From NCBI GenBank assembly GCA_903835075.1, contig CAILLM010000004.1:80532-144531 (forward strand): 64,000 bases of DNA, read 5' to 3'. Below the pieces are notes generated by a model. It did no database searches. It worked only from the letters and a program-made list of their open reading frames with translations, and had not been told where the DNA came from. Positions 1,090 to 61,693 of the stretch are shown here, piece by piece. The DNA is from Candidatus Staskawiczbacteria bacterium. Lineage in GTDB: Bacteria > Patescibacteriota > Minisyncoccia > Minisyncoccales > Staskawiczbacteraceae. Both the position numbers and the translations under genes were made by a program. Within the stretch, counting starts at the first letter, position 1. Each line of letters opens with the position of its first letter.

Positions 1090-1689
1090 ATGGAAATAGA
1101 ATACGAAGCAACATTTACTAACATAAATAAGGACGAGTACAGGAAGAAATTAGAAGGAATTGGCGCAAAATTATTGAAATCAGAATTTTTACAAAAAAGG
1201 GTAGTCTTTGAATTACCAAAAGGTCATGAAATTAAAGGAGGCTGGCTTAGAGTAAGAGACGAAGGTGACAAAATAACAATGAGTTTAAAGATAGTTGATG
1301 GCAATAAAATAGAAAATCAAAAGGAGCTATGTTTGAGAGTAGATAATTTTGAACATGCAACGGAATTTTTAATTAGTATTGGATGTACTAAAAAGGGTTA
1401 CCAGGAAAGTAAACGAGAGTTATGGGTTTTAAATGGAGTGGAAATAACAATTGATGAATGGCCGTTTTTGGAGCCATATTTAGAAATAGAAGGGAAGTCC
1501 GAAAAAGAAGTTAAAAATGTTTCTGAAAAACTTGGGCTAGATTATTCTACTGCGATGTTTTGCGCGGTAGATACTATTTATAGTAAAAAATATAATTTGC
1601 CAGAGAATGTAATTGATAATAATATTTCAAAAATTATTTTTGGTGGAGAAAATCCGTTTATAAATTATAAAGATAAAAATGGCAATTGA
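1090..1689 (+). CDS. CYTH-domain protein (CyaB/thiamine-triphosphatase-like)
   Basis: N-terminal EIEYEATF (ExExK-like strand), WLRVRDEGDKITMSLK, and ITIDEWPFLEPYLEIEG resembling the CYTH C-terminal LD.v.glG.f.EiE strand. Confidence 0.6.
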   Translation: MEIEYEATFTNINKDEYRKKLEGIGAKLLKSEFLQKRVVFELPKGHEIKGGWLRVRDEGDKITMSLKIVDGNKIENQKELCLRVDNFEHATEFLISIGCTKKGYQESKRELWVLNGVEITIDEWPFLEPYLEIEGKSEKEVKNVSEKLGLDYSTAMFCAVDTIYSKKYNLPENVIDNNISKIIFGGENPFINYKDKNGN

Positions 1690-4552
1690 TTTGAATAAAT
1701 TAAATAAAGAGCAAAAAGAAGCTGTGTTGCACGACAAGGGTCCGCTTTTAATTGTAGCAGGAGCTGGCACAGGGAAGACAACAGTTATAACCCAGCGCAT
1801 AGTTAATTTAATTGAGCAAAAGCTAGCTAGGCCAGAAGAAATTTTAGCGGTTACTTTCACTGAAAAAGCCGCACTTGAAATGGAAGAAAGGGTTGATAGG
1901 CTTTTAGATTATGGTTATACGGATCTGTGGATTTCAACCTTTCATGCTTTTTGCGAAAAAGTTTTAAGAGAAAATGCGCTAGATATTGGTTTGGCTCCTA
2001 ACTTTAAAATGTTAGATGGAACAGCCTCTTGGCTTTTAGCTAGGCAAAATTTAGATAAGTTTGATTTAAAATATTATAAATCTTTGGGAAATCCTACGAA
2101 GTTTATTCAAGCTTTAATTTCTCATTTTTCTCATTGCAAAGACCAAGAAGTATATCCAGAAAATTATTTAGAATATGCCAACACCCTAAAAACTACTAAT
2201 GACGACATAGAGGGTCAAGAAACAGAAAGAGTCAAAGAGGTCGCAAACGCTTACCGTGTTTACCAGCAAATTTTGTTAGATAACGGCTCTTTAGACTTTG
2301 GAGACTTAATAAACTATTGTTTAAAACTATTCAAAAAACGACCTTTAATTTTAAAAAAATACAGAGAAAAATTTAAATATATTTTAGTTGATGAATTCCA
2401 AGATACTAATTGGGCTCAATATGAATTAATCAAGATATTAGCGGAGCCAGAAAATAATTTAACTGTTTGCGCTGATGATGACCAGGCAATATACAGATGG
2501 CGCGGAGCTTCTTTTTCCAACATCATAAAATTCAAAGAAGATTTTCCCGAGGCTAAACAAATTTCCCTTATAAATAATTATAGGTCTAGCCAAAACATTT
2601 TAGACCAGTCATATAATTTTATAAAACAAAATGATCCAGATAGACTAGAATTTAGAATTAAAATAAATAAAAAATTAGTTGCTAATATTCCAGAAAAAGG
2701 AACTATAAAACATATTCACTGTAAAACTTTGGAGCAGGAAGTTGGACAAGTTGTAAAGAAAATTTTGGAAATTAAAAAAAGCGATAAAAAGATTTCATAC
2801 AGCGAATTTGCAATTTTAGTTAGGGCAAATGATTCAGCAATTCCATTTATTAGAGCCTTAGAGCGTGCACAATTGCCGTATCAATTTTTAGCTTCAAGGG
2901 GTCTTTATTCTAAGCCAGTAGTTTTAGATATAATTTCTTATTTTAAAATATTAGATAATTATCATGAAGGAATTGCAACATACAGAATTTTAAGTTTGCC
3001 ATTTTTAGAAATTGATAATGCAGACATAGCTACAATAACTCAATATAGCCACAAAAAAACAAAGTCTTTATTTGAGTCGCTACAGGAATTAACTCTTATT
3101 GCCGGTATATCTAAAAATACACACGAGAAAGTGGCTTTTCTATTAAGTTTGATACAAAAACATAGCGAAATGGCGAGAGACAAGGGGGTCTCAGAGGTTT
3201 TAGTCAATTTTTTAGTTGACTCAGGATACTTAGAATATATTAAAGATGACCAAGATAAAATAGATTTAGTAAACCAATTTTTAAAGAAAACAAAACAATT
3301 TGAAGATAATAACTTAGAGCCAACCTTGAAGAGCTTTATGGAGCAAATGACCCTTGAAATTGAATCTGGTGAGGAGGGCAAATTGGAATTTGACCCAGAA
3401 CAGGGCCCTGACATGATTAAAGTAATGACAATCCACGGAGCTAAAGGATTAGAGTTTAAATATGTATTTTTAGTAGGCATGGTAGACAGAAGATTTCCAA
3501 CAGACCAAAGAAAAGACCCAATAGAATTACCAGATGCTCTTATTAAAGACATAAAACCAACTGGAGATGTCCACTTGCAGGAAGAAAGAAGGCTTTGTTA
3601 TGTTGCCATGACTAGGGCTAAAAATGGTCTTTACTTTACTTCAGCAGATGATTACGGTGGACAAAGAAAAAAGAAATTATCTAGATTTTTAACAGAAATG
3701 GGATATAAACAAGAAGATTTATCTTCGGTTGCGGAAAGTGAATTATTAAAAGAAAGAAATAAGGTCATAGCAATAAAGCCAAAATATTCTTATGCTATTC
3801 CAGATCATTTTTCTTTTTCTCAATTAGCTATTTATGAAAAATGTCCGTTACAATATAAATTTCAATATATATTAAAAATTCCTCAAAAAGGAAAAGCAGT
3901 TTTTTCTTTTGGAAGTACAGTGCACAACACTTTCCACCAATTTTTAAAACTAGTTAATGAAAATCCCTCCTCCGCCGAGGCTACGGAAGGGTCGCTCAAA
4001 AATTTAAGAGAAATTTATGAGCGAAATTGGATTGATGAATGGTATGAATCTAAAAAACAAAAACAAGATTATAGAAAAAATGGTGAAAGAATAATAAAAA
4101 ATTTTTATGATAATTTTTTAAAAAATCCGCCCAAACTTTTGGAGATTAATGGTTCACTAGCGCTTGAAACTCCTTTTAATTTAAAAATTGGGGAAGACAC
4201 AATTTATGGAAGAATAGATAGAATTGATAATAATGATGGCGAGATTGAAATTATAGATTACAAAACCGGCAAACCCAAAGAAAAGCTAACCCCAGAAGAA
4301 AAGGAGCAACTTTTAATATACCAAATGGCTGCCCAAGAAGTTTTGGATATAAAACCCCACAAGCTTACTTATCATTATTTAGAAGAAGATAAGAAAATTT
4401 CATTTTTGGGGACAGAGCACGAAATAGAAAATTTGAGAGAAAAAATAAAAGGAATAATTAAAAAAATTAAAAATAACGAGTTTGATGCAAAGCCAGGTTT
4501 TAATTGTGAGTATTGCGACTTTAAAGACTTGTGTGATTTTGCCCAAAGATAG
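1679..4552 (+). CDS. UvrD/PcrA/AddA-type superfamily-1 helicase fused to a C-terminal PD-(D/E)xK nuclease with an Fe-S Cys cluster
   Basis: Walker A AGAGTGKT, DEFQDT, YRWRGA, TIHGAKGLEF and VAMTRAK helicase motifs. The C-terminal RecB/AddB-like nuclease has C...CEYCDFKDLC. Confidence 0.9.
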   Translation: MAIDLNKLNKEQKEAVLHDKGPLLIVAGAGTGKTTVITQRIVNLIEQKLARPEEILAVTFTEKAALEMEERVDRLLDYGYTDLWISTFHAFCEKVLRENALDIGLAPNFKMLDGTASWLLARQNLDKFDLKYYKSLGNPTKFIQALISHFSHCKDQEVYPENYLEYANTLKTTNDDIEGQETERVKEVANAYRVYQQILLDNGSLDFGDLINYCLKLFKKRPLILKKYREKFKYILVDEFQDTNWAQYELIKILAEPENNLTVCADDDQAIYRWRGASFSNIIKFKEDFPEAKQISLINNYRSSQNILDQSYNFIKQNDPDRLEFRIKINKKLVANIPEKGTIKHIHCKTLEQEVGQVVKKILEIKKSDKKISYSEFAILVRANDSAIPFIRALERAQLPYQFLASRGLYSKPVVLDIISYFKILDNYHEGIATYRILSLPFLEIDNADIATITQYSHKKTKSLFESLQELTLIAGISKNTHEKVAFLLSLIQKHSEMARDKGVSEVLVNFLVDSGYLEYIKDDQDKIDLVNQFLKKTKQFEDNNLEPTLKSFMEQMTLEIESGEEGKLEFDPEQGPDMIKVMTIHGAKGLEFKYVFLVGMVDRRFPTDQRKDPIELPDALIKDIKPTGDVHLQEERRLCYVAMTRAKNGLYFTSADDYGGQRKKKLSRFLTEMGYKQEDLSSVAESELLKERNKVIAIKPKYSYAIPDHFSFSQLAIYEKCPLQYKFQYILKIPQKGKAVFSFGSTVHNTFHQFLKLVNENPSSAEATEGSLKNLREIYERNWIDEWYESKKQKQDYRKNGERIIKNFYDNFLKNPPKLLEINGSLALETPFNLKIGEDTIYGRIDRIDNNDGEIEIIDYKTGKPKEKLTPEEKEQLLIYQMAAQEVLDIKPHKLTYHYLEEDKKISFLGTEHEIENLREKIKGIIKKIKNNEFDAKPGFNCEYCDFKDLCDFAQR
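3965..3996 (+). repeat. GC-rich hairpin mini-insert, in frame in the helicase gene (encodes PSSAEATEGSL)
   Basis: ccctcctccgccgaggctacggaagggtcgct sits in AT-rich coding DNA. Stems ccct/aggg and tccg/cgga. Shares CCGCC-gAGGCTacGG with the copies at 29101 and 49103. Confidence 0.5.
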
Positions 4553-6059: not shown

Positions 6060-6899
6060 ATGGTACAAGATAAATACAATGCAGTTTGGGTTTCTCATTC
6101 TTCAATTGGTGACTTTTTAAAGTGTCCAAGGCTTTATTTTTTACATAATGTTTATAAAAATGAACTTGGAAGAAAAATAAATCTAACTAGCCCAGCTCTT
6201 TCTTTGGGAATTGCTGTTCACGAAACAATTGAGGGGTTGTCAAAATATAAAGTTGAGGAAAGATTTTTTAAATCCCTAGAAGAAACATTTGAGGAGGAAT
6301 GGGTAAAAGTTTCTGGTAGAAAAGGTGGTTTTAAAACAGAACAAGAAGAAGCCGAGGCCAAAGAACGTGGCAGAAAAATGGTTTTAAGAGTTGAAAAAAA
6401 CCCAGGGCCACTTGCAAATAAAACAATAAAACTTGCACCTGCTCATAACAATATGCCACCAAATTTCTTTTTGTCTGAAGAAGAAAATATTATTTTAAAT
6501 GGTAAAATTGATTGGATAGAATATGTTCCAGAAGATGATAGTATTAGAGTTATTGATTTTAAAACTGGGAAAAATGAAGAAAAAGCAGATTCTTTACAAC
6601 TTCCAATTTATTTGTTGCTTTTAAATAATCTACAAAAAAGAAAAGTGTCTGGAGCTGCATATTGGTATTTAGATATGGCTGATAAACCAGTTGCAGTTAA
6701 TTTACCAAATGCTGACAAGGCTCACGCACAAGTTTTAGAAATTGCCAGAAGAATTAAAACAGCCAGAGAAAACCAAGAATTTAGTTGTCCAAGGGGGCCA
6801 CAAGGATGTTTCGCCTGTAAGCCATTTGAAAAGATTTTAAAAGGTGAAGCAGAATATATTGGTGTTGGAGGTTATGGCCAAGATATGTATATAATTTAA
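6060..6899 (+). CDS. PD-(D/E)xK nuclease, Cas4/RecB-like, with a four-Cys cluster
   Basis: N-terminal Cys (DFLKCPRLYF), IDWIEY...VIDFKTGK core (D...D/ExK), and C-terminal CPRGPQGCFAC. Confidence 0.65.
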   Translation: MVQDKYNAVWVSHSSIGDFLKCPRLYFLHNVYKNELGRKINLTSPALSLGIAVHETIEGLSKYKVEERFFKSLEETFEEEWVKVSGRKGGFKTEQEEAEAKERGRKMVLRVEKNPGPLANKTIKLAPAHNNMPPNFFLSEEENIILNGKIDWIEYVPEDDSIRVIDFKTGKNEEKADSLQLPIYLLLLNNLQKRKVSGAAYWYLDMADKPVAVNLPNADKAHAQVLEIARRIKTARENQEFSCPRGPQGCFACKPFEKILKGEAEYIGVGGYGQDMYII

Positions 6900-6921: not shown

Positions 6922-7401
6922 ATGAGTAAAAAAATTTTATTAGTTTCTGGTTTGGCGGTTTTATTAGGTGGATTTTTTGTATATGAAAAATTTGTTGTAA
7001 CTCCATCAAACCAAACTCCAATTATAAATAATGATCAGACTCAGGTGTCAGGGAATAATCCGCCACCACAAAATACAACACCAGTTGTCCCCACAACCCC
7101 TGTTGCGCCAGTTGCTTCTGGGTTTAAAAATGGGACTTACACTGGAGGCGTAGCCCAATCAATGTATGGGCCGGTCCAAGCACAAATTGTTGTTAGCTCT
7201 GGCAAAATTGTGAATGTTAATTTTTTACAATATCCTAATGATAGGCCTGCTAGCTTAAGAAAAAGCCAAATGGCTATGCCAGTAATTAAACAAGAGGTGA
7301 TTCAAAGCCAAAGTGCAAACGTAAACACAGTGTCAGGGGCAACAGAAACAAGTTATTATTTTATTCAATCAATATCATCAGCGCTGAGCCAAGCGTCATA
7401 A
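6922..7401 (+). CDS. Membrane-anchored extracytosolic FMN-binding domain protein (flavinylation substrate)
   Basis: N-terminal TM helix, Pro-rich linker, then an FMN_bind-like domain with NTVSGATETS (the [S/T]GA[S/T] flavinylation motif; Thr codon at 7342-7344). Confidence 0.7.
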   Translation: MSKKILLVSGLAVLLGGFFVYEKFVVTPSNQTPIINNDQTQVSGNNPPPQNTTPVVPTTPVAPVASGFKNGTYTGGVAQSMYGPVQAQIVVSSGKIVNVNFLQYPNDRPASLRKSQMAMPVIKQEVIQSQSANVNTVSGATETSYYFIQSISSALSQAS

Positions 7402-8156
7402 TGAAAGAAACAAGATTATTAATGGGCATGCCCATAACAATAGAAATTGTTGATGAAGCAGTAAACAAAGAAATATTTGAAAAGGCTTTTGAATATTTTG
7501 GATATATAGATAAAACTTTTAGTCCATTTAAGCCAGATAGCGAAATTTCAAAAATAAATCGCAAAGAAATTATAGAAAGTGATTGGAACAAAGATATAAA
7601 AGAAGTTTTTTTGCTTGCTGAAAAAACCAAACAAGAAACAAAAGGATATTTTGATATTGTAGATAATAATGGGAAGTACAATCCTTCTGGCATTGTAAAG
7701 GGTTGGGCGATATTAAAAGCATCACAACTAATAAAAGACCTGGGGTTCAACAATTTTTATGTTAATGCTGGCGGAGATGTACAATTTTTTGGAAAAAATA
7801 ATGATGGCAAAACCTGGAGTATTGGGATAAAAAATCCGTTTAATCAAAAAGAAATAGTTAAGGTAGTTTATTTAAAAGACGGCAATGGGATTGCCACGTC
7901 TGGAAATTATATTAGGGGAGATCATATTTATAATCCTAATGATAGAAAAGAAAAAATTGAAGATATTGTTAGTTTTACTGTAATAGGCCCAGACGTTTGT
8001 GAAGCTGATAGGTTTGCAACAGCAGTTTTTGCAATGGGGAGAGATGGAATAAATTTTTTAAATGAAATGCCAGAATATGCTGGATACATGATAAACAAAA
8101 ATGGCATAGCTTATATGACTAATAATTTTGATAAATACACAAATGAAAATTTTTAA
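7401..8156 (+). CDS. apbE: FAD:protein FMN transferase (ApbE family)
   Basis: MGMPITIEI, FSPFKPDSEISKIN, PSGIVKGWA, NAGGD, ATSGNYIRG and EADRFATAVF are typical ApbE motifs. The start overlaps the upstream stop codon. Confidence 0.85.
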   Translation: MKETRLLMGMPITIEIVDEAVNKEIFEKAFEYFGYIDKTFSPFKPDSEISKINRKEIIESDWNKDIKEVFLLAEKTKQETKGYFDIVDNNGKYNPSGIVKGWAILKASQLIKDLGFNNFYVNAGGDVQFFGKNNDGKTWSIGIKNPFNQKEIVKVVYLKDGNGIATSGNYIRGDHIYNPNDRKEKIEDIVSFTVIGPDVCEADRFATAVFAMGRDGINFLNEMPEYAGYMINKNGIAYMTNNFDKYTNENF

Positions 8157-9669
8157 AATAATTGATGATTTTCTAAATAAAACAACAATGTACAGGCTTA
8201 CCCTGTATGGCGTTGTTTCTTTGTGGTTTTTAGCATTATTTTTTAGCGTGGTTGGAATTTTACACTACAACCCCATTGATTTGGTGGTTACCCTAGCACT
8301 GGCATTTGGGATTTGCGTGTTGGTTAATGAAGTTTTTGCTAGAACTTTTGGCGCACCATCAAATAATGAATCTGTATATATAACAGCCTTTATTCTAGCT
8401 TCTATAATTTCTCCAATAAGTTCTTTGCCAGATTTCTATTTTTTACTTTGGGCTTGCATTCTAGCAATGGCTACAAAATATATTTTAGCTATTGGTAAAA
8501 AACATATTTTTAACCCCGCTGCTGCGGGAGTTGTTTTGGCGTCTCTAGTTTCTGGGGGCGCCGCAACGTGGTGGATGGGAACCATTTATATGGCTCCGTT
8601 TGTTTTAATTGTAGGAATACTTATATGTAAAAAAATTAAAAGGTTTGATTTATTTTTAAGTTTTATAGTATCTTCGTTTGTTTTCATTATTGGTTATGAT
8701 ATTTTTGTAGGTCAAAATTTTATCTCGGCAATTGGTAGTACCTTATTTAATTCACCAATTATTTATTTAGGATCTGTTATGTTAACAGAACCCATGACAA
8801 CTCCGCCAATCAAAAAATCAAGAATAATTTATGGGGCATTGATTGGATTTTTAGGGGATCCATTTATAAATATAGCAGGATTTTATTCTACACCAGAGAT
8901 TGCATTGGTTTTAGGAAACATTTATTCCTATGCTGTAAGTTCAAAACGAAAACTTATATTAAAATTAAAAAAAAAGAATAAAATTGCAAACGAAACATAT
9001 GACTTTGTATTCTTGTCAAATCAAAAATTCAATTATAAGCCAGGGCAATATTTGGAATGGACTTTACCGCACGAGAAAATAGATAATAGGGGAATGAGGA
9101 GGTATTTTACTGTTGCCTCTTCGCCAACAGAAAAAGAAATTATAATGGGTGTTAAGTTTTACGATAACCCTAGTTCTTACAAGCAATCGCTAATTTCTTT
9201 GGGCGAACAGGGTACAATTGTTGCTTCGCAATTGGCAGGAGATTTCACTTTACCAGAAGATAAAAATAAAAAATTAGTTTTTATTGCTGGAGGCATAGGG
9301 GTTACTCCTTTTAGAAGTATGATAAAATATCTTATTGATAAGAATGAGAAAAGAGATATCACAATTTTTTATTCTAATAAAGGCATATCAGATATCACTT
9401 ATAAAGATATTTTTGATGAAGCTTTTTTAAATCTTGGGATTAAAACAATTTATTGTTTGAGTGACTCGGAAAGCACGCCGAAAGATTGGAGTGGAGAAAA
9501 AGGCTTTATAACGCCAGAAATGATCAGAAAATATGTTCCTGATTTTGCACAAAGAACTTTTTATATGTCTGGACCAAGGTCTATGATACTTGCTTTCCAG
9601 GATTCTCTTGGTAAGATGGGCATTCCTAAGAATCGCATAAAAACAGACTTCTTTCCGGGGTTTGTATAA
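8128..9669 (+). CDS. Polytopic membrane domain (tentatively RnfD/NqrB-like) fused to an FNR-type FAD/NAD(P)H oxidoreductase
   Basis: About 270 aa with multiple TM helices, including KHIFNPAAAGVVL. The C-terminal half has RRYFTVASSP (RxYS FAD motif) and FIAGGIGVTPFRSM (NAD(P)H motif). Confidence 0.7.
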   Translation: MINTQMKIFKIIDDFLNKTTMYRLTLYGVVSLWFLALFFSVVGILHYNPIDLVVTLALAFGICVLVNEVFARTFGAPSNNESVYITAFILASIISPISSLPDFYFLLWACILAMATKYILAIGKKHIFNPAAAGVVLASLVSGGAATWWMGTIYMAPFVLIVGILICKKIKRFDLFLSFIVSSFVFIIGYDIFVGQNFISAIGSTLFNSPIIYLGSVMLTEPMTTPPIKKSRIIYGALIGFLGDPFINIAGFYSTPEIALVLGNIYSYAVSSKRKLILKLKKKNKIANETYDFVFLSNQKFNYKPGQYLEWTLPHEKIDNRGMRRYFTVASSPTEKEIIMGVKFYDNPSSYKQSLISLGEQGTIVASQLAGDFTLPEDKNKKLVFIAGGIGVTPFRSMIKYLIDKNEKRDITIFYSNKGISDITYKDIFDEAFLNLGIKTIYCLSDSESTPKDWSGEKGFITPEMIRKYVPDFAQRTFYMSGPRSMILAFQDSLGKMGIPKNRIKTDFFPGFV

Positions 9670-10228
9670 TCCTATGTTAGAAACTCTTGAAGACAAAGAA
9701 TTAATAAAAAAATATTTGAAAGGCGAAGCACGAGCCTTTGATTTTTTGGTTGAAAAGAATTTAAAATTAATTTATAATTTTGTATATAAAAATGTTGGCA
9801 ATGAAGCTAGCGCAGAAGATATAACTCAAGAAGTTTTTATTAAAGTTTGGAAGAATATCAAAAAATTTGACCAAACTAAAAGCTTTAAGCCGTGGATTTT
9901 CCAAATAGCCAAAAATACTTCGATTGATTTTTTAAGAAAAAAGAAGAGCATACCATTTTCTAAATTTGAAAATGAAAAAGGGCAAAATGTGTTGGTTGAG
10001 AACACACCAGCTAAGCCTACCAATTTATTAGAAAATTTAAGTGATAAAAAAACATTGGCAACCGCAATGCACAATTTGTCTGAGAAGGAGCAAAAACTTA
10101 TTAATCTCCGGCATGCAGAGGGGCTTAGTTTTAAAGAAATTGCAGGACGGCTTAAGGAATCAGTGAACACAATAAAGAGCAGGTATCGTAGAAGTCTTTC
10201 TAATTTAAGGAAAAATATACACAAATAA
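9662..10228 (+). CDS. ECF-type RNA polymerase sigma-70 family factor
   Basis: Region 2 (DITQEVFIKVWKNIKKFD...FKPWIFQIAKN) and region 4 HTH (LSFKEIAGRLKESVNTIKSRYRRSL). Confidence 0.85.
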   Translation: MYNPMLETLEDKELIKKYLKGEARAFDFLVEKNLKLIYNFVYKNVGNEASAEDITQEVFIKVWKNIKKFDQTKSFKPWIFQIAKNTSIDFLRKKKSIPFSKFENEKGQNVLVENTPAKPTNLLENLSDKKTLATAMHNLSEKEQKLINLRHAEGLSFKEIAGRLKESVNTIKSRYRRSLSNLRKNIHK

Positions 10229-10269
10229 GCACCAAAATACCATATTCAAGCGTAATAATAATATAAAAC

Positions 10270-10662
10270 ATGGAAAACTCCTACATAGAGCCTCCCCAAG
10301 AATTATTAGGAAGAATATTAAAACGCATTCATAACGAAGAGCGTCTTTTAGTTTTAAGAAGAATTTTTATATTTTCAGCCATGTTGCTGACTTCTTTAGC
10401 GGCATTTATTCCAACACTTAAAATACTTTTTTCTGATTTTAACAAATCAGGATTTATCAGCTTCTCTTCTTTGGCTTTCTCGGATTTTTCTTCAGTTGTA
10501 GCCAATTGGCAAAGCTTTACAATGATTTTGTTGGAATCTTTGCCAGCGGTAAGTTTGGCATTATTTTTGGCAGTTTTATTAACATTTTTGCAATCAGCAA
10601 AGTCTTTAACAAAAAATATTAAAACAATATCTGGCATAAGCCATTTAAAAATTGCTGGATAA
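10270..10662 (+). CDS. Putative anti-sigma factor-like membrane protein
   Basis: Lies immediately downstream of the ECF sigma gene. Short cytoplasmic N-terminus followed by 3 TM helices. Assigned by position only. Confidence 0.4.
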   Translation: MENSYIEPPQELLGRILKRIHNEERLLVLRRIFIFSAMLLTSLAAFIPTLKILFSDFNKSGFISFSSLAFSDFSSVVANWQSFTMILLESLPAVSLALFLAVLLTFLQSAKSLTKNIKTISGISHLKIAG

Positions 10663-10668
10663 AAATAA

Positions 10669-11136
10669 ATGGACACAGACAAATTTTTTCAATCTAAATT
10701 ATTCAAGGGAATAATAATAGGAATGTTGGGGGTAATAATATTAACCTTTGTTTTTGGCTTAGGAGTTTTTGTTGGCGAAAAGCGCGCAGAGTTTTCTTTT
10801 AAGTGGGCTGATGAATATCATAATAATTTTGGTGGTCCAAAGGGTGGTTTTTTGGGTGGAATGATGAGTCAAGAGTTTACTGAAGCAAACGGAGTGTTTG
10901 GGCAAATTATAAAAGTTAATTCACAATCTCTAACTATAAAAGGAAAAGATAATGTTGAAAAAATAATTTTAGTAACTGATAAAACAATAATTGTTTATCA
11001 AAGGAAAAATATAAAATTACTCGAACTCAAAGTTGGGGATAGTGCAGTTGTTGTAGGAGAACCCAACAACTCTGGACAAATAGAAGCAGAGCTTATTAGG
11101 GTTATGCCTGCGCCCGTTATAACGCCCAAATTATAA
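10669..11136 (+). CDS. Membrane-anchored small beta-rich protein, paralogous to 14850..15275
   Basis: N-terminal TM helix. The C-terminal pattern G.I..V...SLTIKGKD...I..T..T.I......L..GD...V.G..N..G.I.A..IRV.P is shared with the 14850 gene. Confidence 0.55.
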   Translation: MDTDKFFQSKLFKGIIIGMLGVIILTFVFGLGVFVGEKRAEFSFKWADEYHNNFGGPKGGFLGGMMSQEFTEANGVFGQIIKVNSQSLTIKGKDNVEKIILVTDKTIIVYQRKNIKLLELKVGDSAVVVGEPNNSGQIEAELIRVMPAPVITPKL

Positions 11137-15822: not shown

Positions 15823-15918
15823 GCTTGCATTTTAAAAATTTTGTTGTAATGTATTAGTATGCAGTCGGGACAGCAATTTGAAAATCCGACAATCAAACCA
15901 ACCAACCATATTATCGCA

Positions 15919-17493
15919 ATGAGCACACAAAGTACACAGACTACAAGAGCACTGTTTAGTGTTTCAGACAAAACCGGCTTAGCGAAATTCGCCGAGGAAC
16001 TAGGTCTTTTCGGCATTCAAATTCTGTCGACCGGCGGAACTGCCAAGGAATTGAGAAAAGCCGGAATTCCTGTTACTGATGTCTCCGAATATACCGGCGC
16101 ACCGGAGTTGTTTGACGGCAGGCTTAAGACGTTGCACCCGAAAGTGCATGGTGGTTTGCTCCAGCGTCGTCGTAACAAAAAAGATATCGAGGAGGCTGCG
16201 GCAAACAATATACCACAAATCGATTTCGTTGTGGTGAACCTTTATCCCTTCGAACAAACCGTCGCTAAACCCGATACGACATTTGACGACGCCATTGAAA
16301 ACATCGACATTGGTGGCCCCTCGATGCTTCGTAGCGCCGCAAAGAACTTTGCCGATGTCACCGTTGTGATTGACCCGGCCGATTATCCCCGCGTTATTGG
16401 ATGCATGCGCGAGAACGACGGCAAAACGACACTCGCATTGCGGCGGGAATTGGCTCTGAAGGTTTTTGAGCGGACCAGCCGTTACGACGCCGCCATTCTT
16501 ACGTATCTTGAGAGCCAAGATACTGACAATGCCTCGGTTATGCCCTCAACGCTTCGTCTTTGTTTGCCAAAAGCACAGGACCTCCGTTACGGCGAAAATC
16601 CACACCAAAAGAGTGCGCTTTATGGCGACTTTTGGAAGTATTACAGTCAGCATGGTGGCAAAGAACTTTCCTACACCAATATTCTGGACATTGCCTCGGC
16701 CTCGACGTTGATAGACGACCTTGGTGATGATTCAATCGCGATACTGAAACATACGACACCATGCGGCGTTGCCATTGACGGCACATCGCCAGTTGAAGCG
16801 TGGAATCTTGCTTTTGCCACAGACAAAGATTCTCCCTTTGGTGGCGTGATTGTTTTGCCTTGGAAAACGGAAGTAGACACTGACCTTGTGGATGTTCTCA
16901 AGGACATTTTTGTGGAAATAGTCATTGCTTCAAGTTTCACGCCTGGAGCGCTGGCGGCTCTTCAAAGAAGGAAGAATCTGAGAATCATCCAACGCACCGG
17001 TATCCCGCCTTTCGATTTGGATTTGAAATCAATTCCGGGTGGAATGTTGGTGCAAGAGCGGGATGTTCTTCGGGAAGCGTGGAGCGACTTCAAGGTCGTG
17101 ACTAAACGGCTACCTACCGAAGAAGAAAAGTTTGCCATGATGTTTGCTTGGAAGGTTGTCAAAAACGCCAAGTCAAATGCCATGGTTTACGCCAAATACC
17201 AAGGTGGAACTTATCGTACCTTGTGCATTGGCGCCGGTCAGACCAGCAGAGTGGATGCATCCAAAATTGCGATTTGGAAGTCTGAACAAGCCGACCTATC
17301 GCTGGTTGGCAGTGTCCTTGCTAGTGAAGCATTCATCCCATTTGCAGACGGTGCGGAAGCAGCATTCAAGGCGGGCGCAACTGCCATAATACAGACCGGA
17401 GGTAGTATCCGAGACAAAGAGGTGATTGCTGCCGCAGATGCAGCTGGGGCAGCAATGGTGATGACCGGTTATCGCCATTTCAGACATGGTTAG
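15919..17493 (+). CDS. purH: Bifunctional AICAR formyltransferase / IMP cyclohydrolase
   Basis: RALFSVSDKTGL...LSTGGTAK...GRLKTLHPKVHGGLL (MGS-like IMPCH domain), followed by an AICARFT domain through to the YRHFRHG C-terminus. I prefer the ATG at 15919 (MSTQSTQ); the ORF track start at 15859 adds 20 non-conserved residues. Confidence 0.9.
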   Translation: MSTQSTQTTRALFSVSDKTGLAKFAEELGLFGIQILSTGGTAKELRKAGIPVTDVSEYTGAPELFDGRLKTLHPKVHGGLLQRRRNKKDIEEAAANNIPQIDFVVVNLYPFEQTVAKPDTTFDDAIENIDIGGPSMLRSAAKNFADVTVVIDPADYPRVIGCMRENDGKTTLALRRELALKVFERTSRYDAAILTYLESQDTDNASVMPSTLRLCLPKAQDLRYGENPHQKSALYGDFWKYYSQHGGKELSYTNILDIASASTLIDDLGDDSIAILKHTTPCGVAIDGTSPVEAWNLAFATDKDSPFGGVIVLPWKTEVDTDLVDVLKDIFVEIVIASSFTPGALAALQRRKNLRIIQRTGIPPFDLDLKSIPGGMLVQERDVLREAWSDFKVVTKRLPTEEEKFAMMFAWKVVKNAKSNAMVYAKYQGGTYRTLCIGAGQTSRVDASKIAIWKSEQADLSLVGSVLASEAFIPFADGAEAAFKAGATAIIQTGGSIRDKEVIAAADAAGAAMVMTGYRHFRHG

Positions 17494-30438: not shown

Positions 30439-30467
30439 TGTAATATGGGTAACATATGCTCCCGTAG

Positions 30468-30539
30468 CTCAATGGTAGAGCAGTAGCCTTTTAAGCTATT
30501 GGTTCCGCGTTCGAGTCGCGGCGGGAGCACATGCGAAAA
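30468..30539 (+). tRNA. tRNA-Lys (anticodon UUU)
   Basis: Hand-folded cloverleaf. Acceptor GCTCCCG/CGGGAGC, D arm GCTC-AATGGTA-GAGC, anticodon loop CT-TTT-AA, T arm CCGCG-TTCGAGT-CGCGG. No encoded CCA. Confidence 0.9.
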
Positions 30540-51916: not shown

Positions 51917-51987
51917 TGCGGGATCGTCTAATGGTAGGACACGGCCCTTTGAAGGCTGGTATCTAGGTTCGAGTCCTAGTCCCGCAG
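51917..51987 (+). tRNA. tRNA-Gln (anticodon UUG)
   Basis: Hand-folded. Acceptor TGCGGGA/TCCCGCA (the U1-A72 pair is typical of bacterial tRNA-Gln), D arm GTCT-AATGGTA-GGAC, anticodon loop CT-TTG-AA, T arm CTAGG-TTCGAGT-CCTAG. Confidence 0.9.
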
Positions 51988-61494: not shown

Positions 61495-61596
61495 CGATCG
61501 TACAGATTTAGGATTTTTTCATATTTGTGATATAATAATTTAACAATTTAATAATTCGCCTAAACTCATATATTTCTATGGGCATGGCACTAAAGT

Positions 61597-61693
61597 CTAA
61601 ACAAGCATAAAGATCCCATCATGGGGTTGCTTGTTTAGCCATATCGGGAAACTGGTATGAGAGGTTTCGGCCTCTACCCGTGGTGGGTTTTTT
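61597..61693 (+). ncRNA. Candidate structured leader / small RNA upstream of the zinc-ribbon gene
   Basis: Perfect 11-bp stem ctaaacaagca/tgcttgtttag (61597-61638) with a nested ccca-tca-tggg. Then agagg-tttcgg-cctct (61660-61675), then accc-gtggt-gggt plus T6 (61676-61693). An extended -10 TGaTATAAT lies at 61528-61536. Confidence 0.3.

Follow-up and report, generated by a model that had tools for sequence, protein, structure and literature searches.

A CPR/Patescibacteria member of the NQR/RNF-like flavinylation-associated systems with a leaderless ApbE

Introduction

The NQR/RNF-like flavinylation-associated system was described in 2021 (Meheust et al., eLife, PMC8238504) and in 2024 (Huang et al., PMC10979944), with Actinobacteria and CPR named as the groups in which it mainly occurs. 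The system has a PF03116 + PF00175 fusion protein, an FMN_bind partner of the NqrC/RnfG family, and a clustered ApbE gene, but the canonical Thr of NqrB/RnfD is not retained. The two-subunit complex was modelled, and the loss of the NqrB/RnfD flavinylation site was noted (Huang et al. 2024, PMC10979944). The proposed electron flow runs one way, out of NAD(P)H and into the extracytosol, and no coupling is stated (PMC8238504; PMC10979944). The survey, in which a predicted signal peptide or lipobox was required, reported 127 clusters (PMC8238504). No biochemical study of any member was found in the literature searched.

Several other systems are related in part. The Na+-NQR (NqrA-F) and Rnf (RnfABCDGE) complexes share homologous subunits with the NQR/RNF-like system. 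Listeria-type EET (Ndh2, EetA/B, PplA, FmnB) relies on a type-II NADH dehydrogenase together with a quinone pool; its ApbE, FmnB, is a lipoprotein, and FAD leaves the cell through a dedicated exporter. In NOX/FRE, MsrQ-like, and PepSY-like NAD-binding fusions, a cytoplasmic FNR domain is joined to a transmembrane electron conduit.

Here, I analyzed three genes that form a CPR/Patescibacteria member of the published NQR/RNF-like system. An earlier note on this DNA could place neither the fusion nor its presence in a minimal genome of fermentative type in a described class. This claim does not hold, because the same fusion and cluster, which are common in CPR/Patescibacteria, were published in 2021 and 2024.

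Results

As listed in Table 1, genes for an FMN_bind protein, an ApbE, and a fusion of a membrane domain with an FNR domain lie on the same strand of the window, the whole 64-kb stretch of DNA analyzed in this study. The sequence TAATG (7399-7403), as read off directly, is a 1-nt stop/start overlap between the FMN_bind gene and the ApbE gene. The third ORF can be read from a TTG (8128-9669, 513 aa). However, the ATG at 8143 (508 aa) is the most likely start, because public gene calls give 508 aa and the homologues begin at the equivalent residue. The fusion gene overlaps the stop codon of the ApbE gene, and 14 nt are shared if the ATG at 8143 is used. Thus, the three packed and overlapping genes of the earlier note stand, including the overlap at 7401 and the joining of a membrane domain to an FNR domain in the fusion (Pfam), but the third gene more likely starts at 8143 than at 8128, which shortens the 513-aa product. 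The gene identities proposed there were borne out by Pfam matches above the curated cut-offs.

Table 1. Features of the three-gene locus and its downstream neighbors (positions in the window; fusion residues in 508-aa numbering)
Feature	Position	Strand	Basis or remark
FMN_bind protein with membrane anchor, 159 aa; predicted to be flavinylated by ApbE and to carry electrons in the extracytosol	6922-7401	+	PF04205
Hydrophobic anchor at the N-terminus (residues 5-21), directly after KK	6934-6984	+	hydropathy and flank charges
P/T/N/Q-rich linker, residues 27-67 (~40 aa)	7000-7122	+	after the anchor
Flavinylation motif VSGATETS, residues 137-144; predicted FMN-phosphoester acceptor Thr141 (codon 7342-7344)	7330-7353	+	8P2A alignment
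ApbE FAD:protein FMN transferase, compact and without a leader, 251 aa	7401-8156	+	PF02424, 134.7 bits
Membrane domain of the fusion with RnfD/NqrB fold (residues 1-270); about 10 TM segments, both termini inside	8143-8952	+	PF03116
KHIFNPAAAG, residues 120-129	8500-8529	+	aligns with RsxD NPFNPAM
Short outside loop GGAATWWMGTIYM at the RnfD/NqrB covalent-FMN loop position	8554-8592	+	MAFFT vs E. coli RsxD
FNR-type FAD/NAD(P)H domain on the cytoplasmic side of the fusion (residues 271-508), with stop codon	8953-9669	+	PF00175 + PF00970
RRYFTVASSP, residues 319-328	9097-9126	+	
GGIGVTPFRSM, residues 383-393	9289-9321	+	
ECF-type sigma-70 factor, 184 aa (public gene call)	9674-10228	+	Pfam Sigma70_r2/r4
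TM protein	10270-10662		after the sigma-70 factor
DUF5666-like anchored protein	10669-11136		after the TM protein

When all six-frame ORFs of at least 60 aa in the 64-kb window were searched with a regular expression for the flavinylation motif, the single match was VSGATETS. No second ApbE, second FMN_bind, or further flavinylation target was found in the window. Because the motif is unique in the window and the gene order recurs among CPR loci, the cluster is not a chance arrangement. A promoter scan stayed at chance level (24 found versus 23.2 expected), no convincing terminator was found between the genes, and Rfam gave no relevant match at the locus. The gene of the sigma-70 factor begins 4 nt past the stop codon of the fusion gene and is probably co-transcribed with it. 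Its downstream position is conserved only in the closest relatives (loci L003 and L004), outside the conserved core. The surrounding genes are those for a nuclease, a tRNA-binding protein, GDH, the sigma factor, and a MacAB-like protein.

Is this gene order common in CPR? By tblastn, the FMN_bind-ApbE-fusion order was found in 21 of 29 CPR genome loci, or in about 24 of 29 with divergent or contig-cut cases. The fusion is present in 28 of these loci, ApbE in 24, and FMN_bind in 21, and only these three genes are conserved; neither a conserved acceptor gene nor an extra subunit was found across the 29 loci. At 50% identity and E<=1e-30, the fusion family falls into 603 clusters. The sequence searches put the family at 603 to 1,518 clusters, which suggests that it is far more common in CPR than the 127 reported clusters. 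In three loci, a membrane-anchored cupredoxin adjoins the fusion. The adjoining cupredoxins point independently to an extracytoplasmic redox partner.

The FMN_bind protein scored 32.6 bits against PF04205 (cut-off 22), and its residues 72-158 matched PDB 8P2A in a phmmer search (E=5e-12). Its assignment to the NqrC/RnfG family rests on Pfam and 8P2A; BLASTP against E. coli RsxG gave nothing significant. The Thr-FMN bond of SaFMN3-D2 (PDB 8P2A) has been observed crystallographically (PMC10339131). In the alignment, VSGATETS, already recognized in the earlier note as an ApbE target, pairs with VSGATYTS of 8P2A and places Thr141 at the Thr-FMN position. Thus, a flavinylatable Thr is present by alignment. 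The [ST]GA[TS] core is kept across the FMN_bind homologues. The N-terminal flank of the anchor carries a charge of +2 (KK) and the C-terminal flank a net charge of 0 or less, which favors an N-in/C-out orientation. From hydropathy and sequence reading, no AxA cleavage site was seen after the anchor, so it probably serves as a signal anchor that stays uncleaved, with the N-terminus inside. By the positive-inside rule, the orientation is ambiguous in some Saccharibacteria-type homologues, in which the flank following the anchor ('IRHQRPIIAKP') equals or exceeds the N-terminus in positive charge.

The membrane domain of the fusion has the RnfD/NqrB fold, as KHIFNPAAAG had hinted. PF03116 (NQR2_RnfD_RnfE) matched the fusion with 30.0 bits (cut-off 27.7). 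Since full-length profile and model searches against PDB were swamped by FNR matches, the membrane domain was cropped. The only match of the cropped domain in the PDB profile search was RnfD (8AHX_D), and hhalign gave 92.8% probability against RsxD, only the C-terminal half of the domain being aligned in these two comparisons. An AF2 model of the domain (pLDDT 88.3, pTM 0.86) was used for Foldseek, and the best 15 matches were all RnfD or NqrB chains (TMq 0.54-0.71). The N-terminal half and the deletion described below are visible only via the MAFFT --add alignment and the fold search. The MAFFT alignment with E. coli RsxD is collinear, and FNPA pairs with F121-NPA of RsxD. K120, H121, N124, and P125 are invariant across the fusion family, H121 being the only invariant His in the membrane domain. 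N62, N74, K112, E216, E252, and N259 are invariant polar or charged intramembrane residues.

At the short outside loop, about 79 residues are deleted, and the RsxD segment containing GISQAT187PLD has no counterpart (MAFFT). W143 and W144 in this loop are invariant in the family, and the residue preceding WW varies (T, S, N, Y, or V). The predicted topology is backed by the K+R counts of the loops: the FNR domain, the KKH loop, and the KR loop lie inside, and the truncated FMN loop (mean 0.16 K+R) lies outside. A K/R-rich segment (residues 266-285, mean 5.3 K+R) precedes the FNR domain and places it inside.

In the FNR domain, PF00175 (NAD_binding_1) matched residues 385-490 with 58.3 bits, the match to FAD_binding_6 (PF00970) was weak, and DFFPGFV lies at the C-terminus. 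The best PDB sequence matches are NqrF FAD domains, and the Foldseek matches include FNR, NqrF, flavohaemoglobin, and SpNOX dehydrogenase domains. No Fer2 (2Fe-2S) domain was matched; the last TM helix leads directly into the FNR domain, which starts near residue 271.

The conserved FAD/Mg2+ and catalytic motifs of ApbE are intact as judged from the alignment, in which GGD, ATSGNY (TSGxY), GDHIYNP (His), and EADRFAT (EADxxxT) fall at conserved positions of E. coli ApbE (2O18/4XGW). The protein begins with MKETRLLMGMP, with neither an in-frame start upstream nor a hydrophobic segment. A signal peptide, a lipobox, and a TM segment are absent from the ApbE here, in 24 related loci, and in the 120 nearest homologues, among which no lipobox was found and the maximum 19-aa hydropathy was 1.54. 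The ApbE is therefore cytoplasmic by the usual criterion. In the comparison set, which consists of CPR loci, ApbE is uniformly leaderless and about 248 aa long. With respect to the signal peptide or lipobox used in the published survey, the ApbE has neither, and the FMN_bind protein has KK and a hydrophobic N-terminal helix with no obvious cleavage site. Leaderless cytosolic ApbEs are a known minority, and cytosolic substrates have been documented, for example in K. pneumoniae (PMC12052999).

The missing export signal had been overlooked in the earlier note. Export of ApbE by read-through or fusion with FMN_bind was considered and rejected, as the stop codon is TAA, not a recoded TGA, the frames differ, and the upstream ORF extensions in some loci are out-of-frame overlaps with no hydrophobic character.

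Discussion

At the level of the class definition, the locus does not differ from the NQR/RNF-like system. The details that go beyond the two papers (PMC8238504; PMC10979944) are the leaderless CPR ApbE, the loop deletion of about 79 residues, and the cupredoxin pairing in some CPR relatives. The likeness to Na+-NQR and Rnf extends to the RnfD/NqrB fold with its FNPA and LT(E/D)P motifs, an FNR domain closest to the FAD/NADH domain of NqrF, a partner with an NqrC/RnfG FMN_bind domain, and an ApbE maturase. In contrast to these complexes, the locus has only two redox subunits and lacks NqrA/D/E or RnfA/B/C/E. Its FNR module has no N-terminal 2Fe-2S domain as in NqrF and is fused straight onto the RnfD-like domain, which has lost the covalent FMN loop of RnfD/NqrB. 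Electrons have no route back to quinone or ferredoxin, and the FMN_bind protein has no pairwise similarity to E. coli RsxG.

Like Listeria-type EET, the locus belongs to a monoderm and would pass NAD(P)H electrons to a surface-tethered, ApbE-flavinylated FMN_bind protein, with NAD+ regeneration or iron reduction as the presumed role. However, a single RnfD-like/FNR polypeptide would make the transmembrane step, the ApbE carries no signal for export, and the module does not imply a quinone. In the NOX/FRE/MsrQ conduits, conserved His pairs of a helical bundle ligate two haems, whereas the membrane domain here has an RnfD/NqrB fold with one invariant His. The cofactors of this domain are therefore presumably flavins rather than haems. 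The RYFTVASSP FAD motif resembles the NOX-type HPFTLTSAP motif; this is a lead only.

I consider it fairly likely, with a probability of roughly 65%, that the module is a two-subunit derivative of the NqrB/C/F (RnfD/G) core which, together with its maturation enzyme, exports electrons from NAD(P)H. I infer its cofactors, the direction of electron flow, and the acceptor as follows. The FAD in the cytoplasmic FNR domain would be reduced by NAD(P)H, and the electrons would traverse the membrane via non-covalent flavin(s) in the RnfD/NqrB-fold domain, whose own covalent-FMN loop is lost. They would then arrive at the FMN that ApbE links by a phosphoester to Thr141 of the FMN_bind protein, which would be tethered outside the membrane by its N-terminal helix and the flexible linker of about 40 residues. 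The tethered flavodomain may reduce an acceptor in the extracytosol, for which Fe(III), O2, a redox compound that is soluble or comes from a host, and, in some relatives, a cupredoxin are candidates. The likely gain for a fermentative, respiration-poor cell would be NAD(P)+ regeneration and/or reductive iron acquisition. Export from NAD(P)H to an extracytosolic flavoprotein, as suggested in the earlier note, is thus a reasonable reading and equals the model published for the class.

The leaderless ApbE conflicts with a substrate domain predicted to lie outside and counts against this electron export, as do the ambiguous anchor flanks of some homologues and the lack of a conserved acceptor gene in the loci compared. 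If flavinylation and the FMN_bind domain were both intracellular, nothing flavinylated would be exported, and the anchored flavodomain would shuttle electrons from the FNR domain to the cytoplasmic face of the RnfD-like domain, to O2, or to another intracellular or membrane acceptor. Such an arrangement would suit the uniformly leaderless ApbE clade, the cytosolic ApbEs with cytosolic substrates mentioned above, the cytoplasmic location of the co-substrate FAD, and the ambiguous flank charges in a subset of homologues. Nevertheless, it is unlikely, as the flank charges of the window protein favor N-in/C-out, the linker composition appears typical of extracellular tethers, the pocket vacated by the RnfD FMN loop is on the outside face, and the neighboring cupredoxins are carriers of an extracytoplasmic type. 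Moreover, in the AlphaFold-multimer model published for a homologous complex, the NqrC-like flavin is docked at the outside site (Huang et al. 2024, PMC10979944). Quite unlikely, too, is a minimal redox-driven ion pump, in which the RnfD/NqrB-fold domain would couple NAD(P)H oxidation to Na+/H+ export and thereby energize the membrane where a respiratory chain is missing. It would be compatible with electron export as an addition. RnfD and NqrB, to which the domain is related by homology and fold, are subunits of ion-translocating complexes, and the invariant intramembrane residues would be in keeping with this role, but RnfA/E (NqrD/E) and their Fe-S centre are absent from the neighborhood, the covalent FMN loop is deleted, and the published view is of unidirectional flow with coupling not stated (PMC8238504; PMC10979944).

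Inward flow is improbable. In that case, the fusion would reduce NAD(P)+ with electrons that the tethered flavoprotein draws from an extracellular donor, for instance a reduced cupredoxin or a carrier on the host surface. CPR cells are frequently attached to hosts, which would suit such a donor, but the reduction of NAD(P)+ (about -320 mV) via uncoupled flavins needs a donor of very low potential, and the cluster supplies none. Least credible is a membrane domain that has no part in redox chemistry, serves as a channel or transporter for solutes, and lies next to the other genes incidentally. Urea transporters are the next Foldseek matches after RnfD/NqrB (E 0.2-3, TMq ~0.43), but the RnfD/NqrB matches are better by roughly four orders of magnitude. 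In hundreds of 50%-identity clusters, the domain shares one polypeptide with FNR, and the synteny with ApbE and FMN_bind is kept across deep CPR lineages.

The locus is an ordinary NQR/RNF-like member with one wrinkle, namely the leaderless ApbE beside a substrate predicted to face outward. A tentative proposal for the CPR/Patescibacteria module, which I regard as possible but doubtful, is that the cytoplasmic ApbE matures the carrier before or during membrane insertion, or that ApbE exits by an unrecognized route. If so, the FMN carrier would be exported with its flavin already on, or ApbE would take a novel route, and neither maturation mode has been described for ApbE. An FAD exporter would be dispensable in these minimal cells, and surveys based on signal peptides would undercount flavin-based electron export in CPR.

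The usual picture of CPR bacteria is one of fermenters that have hardly any redox machinery in the membrane. A module for NAD(P)H-driven export that is both compact and widespread in CPR is therefore biologically relevant. The module could support redox balance, iron acquisition, or host interaction, as already published for the class. The cupredoxin neighbors are a clue to the acceptor. If the proposed maturation is true, the module may rank among the few membrane redox systems of CPR, apparently wired to cupredoxins in some lineages.

An ordinary member of the NQR/RNF-like class

It was found that the three-gene module is a real, well-formed and ordinary member of a published flavinylation-associated class, the NQR/RNF-like systems (Meheust et al. 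2021, PMC8238504; Huang et al. 2024, PMC10979944). Its domain identities, folds, topology signals, flavinylation site, loop deletion and synteny were all observed. The ORF scan and Pfam confirmed the module proposed in the earlier note, and all motifs cited there were found at the expected residues. ORF1 and ORF2 share one base at their junction (TAATG). A small correction is needed for the start codon of ORF3, which is most likely ATG 8143 rather than TTG 8128; the protein then has 508 aa, and its gene overlaps the end of the ApbE gene, stop codon included, by 14 nt. This ATG is used in public gene calls, and the fusion homologues also begin there.

Features of the window and of the compared CPR loci
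Feature	Position	Remarks
ORF1, FMN_bind protein	6922-7401	same direction as ORF2, ORF3; ORF scan; Pfam FMN_bind 32.6 bits (cut-off 22)
ORF2, ApbE	7401-8156	same direction as ORF1, ORF3; ORF scan; Pfam ApbE 134.7 bits
ORF3, fusion	8128-9669	as read from TTG 8128; same direction as ORF1, ORF2; ORF scan; Pfam NQR2_RnfD_RnfE 30.0 bits (cut-off 27.7), NAD_binding_1 58.3 bits, FAD_binding_6 weak
ECF-type sigma factor	9674 onward	4 nt past fusion stop; first of the 9674-11136 neighbours
TM protein, possible anti-sigma factor	10270-10662	no Pfam match
DUF5666-like anchored protein	within 9674-11136	downstream of TM protein
UvrD/AddB-like helicase-nuclease (957 aa)	1679-4552	a little upstream of module
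Separate PD-(D/E)XK/Cas4-like nuclease (279 aa)	6060-6899	just upstream of module; duplicated in L004
PurH-like ORF (544 aa)	15859-17493	AICAR transformylase/IMP cyclohydrolase, judged by eye only
tRNA genes	30458-30529, 51917-51987	
LOOT RNA (Rfam RF03000)	61557-61675	+ strand; 85.3 bits (gathering score 46.4)
Cupredoxin, L026	4497-4985	
Cupredoxin, L015	6026-6526	
Cupredoxin, L023	3083-3568	
MsrB (SelR, PF01641), L018	6449-6916	directly downstream of fusion; FMN_bind/ApbE not adjacent

The FMN_bind protein consists of an N-terminal KK with a hydrophobic helix (5-21), a P/T/N/Q-rich linker (27-67) and an FMN_bind domain of ~90 residues. This domain matched SaFMN3-D2 (PDB 8P2A; E=5e-12), and its VSGAT141ETS falls on VSGATYTS, whose Thr carries covalently bound FMN in the crystal structure (PMC10339131). 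A pattern search of six-frame ORFs found no second flavinylation-motif match elsewhere in the window.

AlphaFold2 models of the full-length fusion (pLDDT 88.5, pTM 0.83) and of the membrane domain alone (pLDDT 88.3, pTM 0.86) were confident. The best sequence matches of the FNR half are NqrF FAD domains, and its fold matches are FNR, flavohaemoglobin, NqrF and SpNOX dehydrogenase domains. For the membrane half, a PDB profile search returned RnfD only (8AHX_D, E=9e-4), hhalign against E. coli RsxD gave a probability of 92.8%, and the top 15 Foldseek matches were RnfD and NqrB chains (prob 1.00, TMq 0.54-0.71), with urea transporters ranked far below. The MAFFT alignment with RsxD is collinear throughout (FNPA on FNPA, LTEP on LTDP), and a deletion of ~79 residues removes the whole RsxD loop bearing the flavinylated Thr187 (GISQAT187PLD). 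Loop K+R counts in 50 homologues group the KKH loop (115-124) and the KR loop (166-167) with the N-terminus and the very basic FNR junction (266-285; mean 5.3 K+R) on one face, and set the shortened loop 138-150 (mean 0.16) on the opposite one. This charge pattern indicates an N-in, C-in topology with ~10 TM segments, which makes the FNR domain cytoplasmic and turns the former FMN site outward, as in RnfD/NqrB.

In domain architecture, gene clustering, flavinylation motif and loss of the RnfD Thr site, the window module has the defining features of the NQR/RNF-like class. It lacks three hallmarks of canonical Rnf/NQR, namely the complete set of subunits, a covalent FMN carried by subunit D/B and the NqrF 2Fe-2S domain. 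Thus, the functional reading in the earlier note, predicted NAD(P)H-driven electron export to a flavinylated carrier, was probably right, while its statement that the fusion, or its occurrence in a minimal genome, could not be placed in a described class was wrong, and the novelty claim fails. Meheust et al. proposed unidirectional electron transfer from NAD(P)H to an FMN-binding domain outside the cytosol. According to Huang et al. (PMC10979944), NQR/RNF-like clusters have only two apparent subunits, and an AlphaFold-multimer model for Ktedonobacter racemifer packs the NqrC/RnfG-like subunit on the NqrB/RnfD-like one. These clusters have not kept the flavinylation site of NqrB/RnfD, so the flavin held covalently by the partner may visit the vacant non-covalent site (PMC10979944).

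A literature search found no experimental study of any class member. I infer the membrane-domain cofactor content, flow direction and acceptor as follows. NAD(P)H would reduce the FAD of the FNR domain, and electrons would pass to at least one non-covalent flavin within the RnfD-fold domain, then to FMN-Thr141 of the tethered carrier, probably docked at the outer W143/W144 loop, and finally to an acceptor beyond the carrier.

Distribution and neighbouring genes

Database relatives of the fusion number in the thousands. The best 120 are all full-length at 50-71% identity, and their source-given names, where present, are mostly of CPR lineages (Staskawiczbacteria, Parcubacteria, Magasanikbacteria, Taylorbacteria, Pacebacteria and "Patescibacteria group"). 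Among 1.84 billion representatives, the membrane-domain profile matched 603 clusters (50% identity) at E<=1e-30 and 1,518 at E<=1e-10. By tblastn, 21 of 29 CPR genome loci have the FMN_bind-ApbE-fusion order, and three further loci (L012, L023, L020) have divergent or contig-truncated versions. Clustering of neighbouring ORFs in these 29 loci showed conservation of the module genes only (fusion in 28, ApbE in 24, FMN_bind in 21) and no conserved acceptor gene. Only the nearest Staskawiczbacteria relatives (L003, L004) keep the downstream genes for the ECF sigma factor, the TM protein and the DUF5666-like protein; in other lineages (L007, L014, L022, L028, L029) the module instead borders a two-component system of response regulator and histidine kinase. 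Elsewhere in the window, the PurH-like ORF has ~47% GC against ~33% in the rest and may be a recent horizontal acquisition.

I found that a membrane-anchored cupredoxin (~160 aa; PF13473/PF00127) abuts the fusion in three of the 29 loci, two of which (L026, L015) have no FMN_bind or ApbE gene adjacent to the fusion. The type-1 copper pattern H...C-x4-H-x4-M is present in the L026 and L023 proteins (FYCSVGNHRAEGM). The cupredoxins may be extracytoplasmic redox partners, either alternative or additional ones. The window has no such cupredoxin.

A leaderless ApbE

ApbEs are typically secreted lipoproteins. In the module ApbE, GGD, TSGxY, EADxxxT and the His of GDHIYNP line up with conserved positions of the E. 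coli enzyme. The protein is compact, though, its core starts at once (MKETRLLMGMP), and it has neither a signal peptide nor a lipobox nor a TM segment; the window holds no in-frame start upstream. ApbEs of ~245 aa beginning MK.T..IMGMP also occur in related CPR loci. The 120 nearest homologues (P0121-P0240) have a median length of 248 aa. Of the 113 sequences that could be scored, 111 have the MG[MT] core motif no further than 14 residues from the N-terminus; lipoboxes are absent, and 19-aa hydropathy is at most 1.54. The leaderless form (~248 aa) holds for the whole CPR clade, as covered by the window, loci L003-L031 and these homologues, although the substrate domain is predicted to face outward.

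Cytosolic ApbEs with cytosolic substrates exist (PMC12052999). It is possible that the carrier is flavinylated in the cytoplasm and exported afterwards, or that ApbE itself is exported non-classically. The carrier may instead be inward-facing; in some Saccharibacteria-type homologues the segments flanking the anchor give an ambiguous orientation. The leaderless ApbE is not discussed in Meheust et al. or Huang et al. (PMC10979944). The cupredoxin neighbours are a second detail missing from both class papers, and the words "Cupredoxin" and "copper" are absent from the 2021 survey text. Given the family size seen in the present searches, CPR clusters may have been undercounted in that survey, partly through its signal-peptide filter. 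The remaining interest of the module lies in its leaderless ApbE and in the biochemistry of the class.
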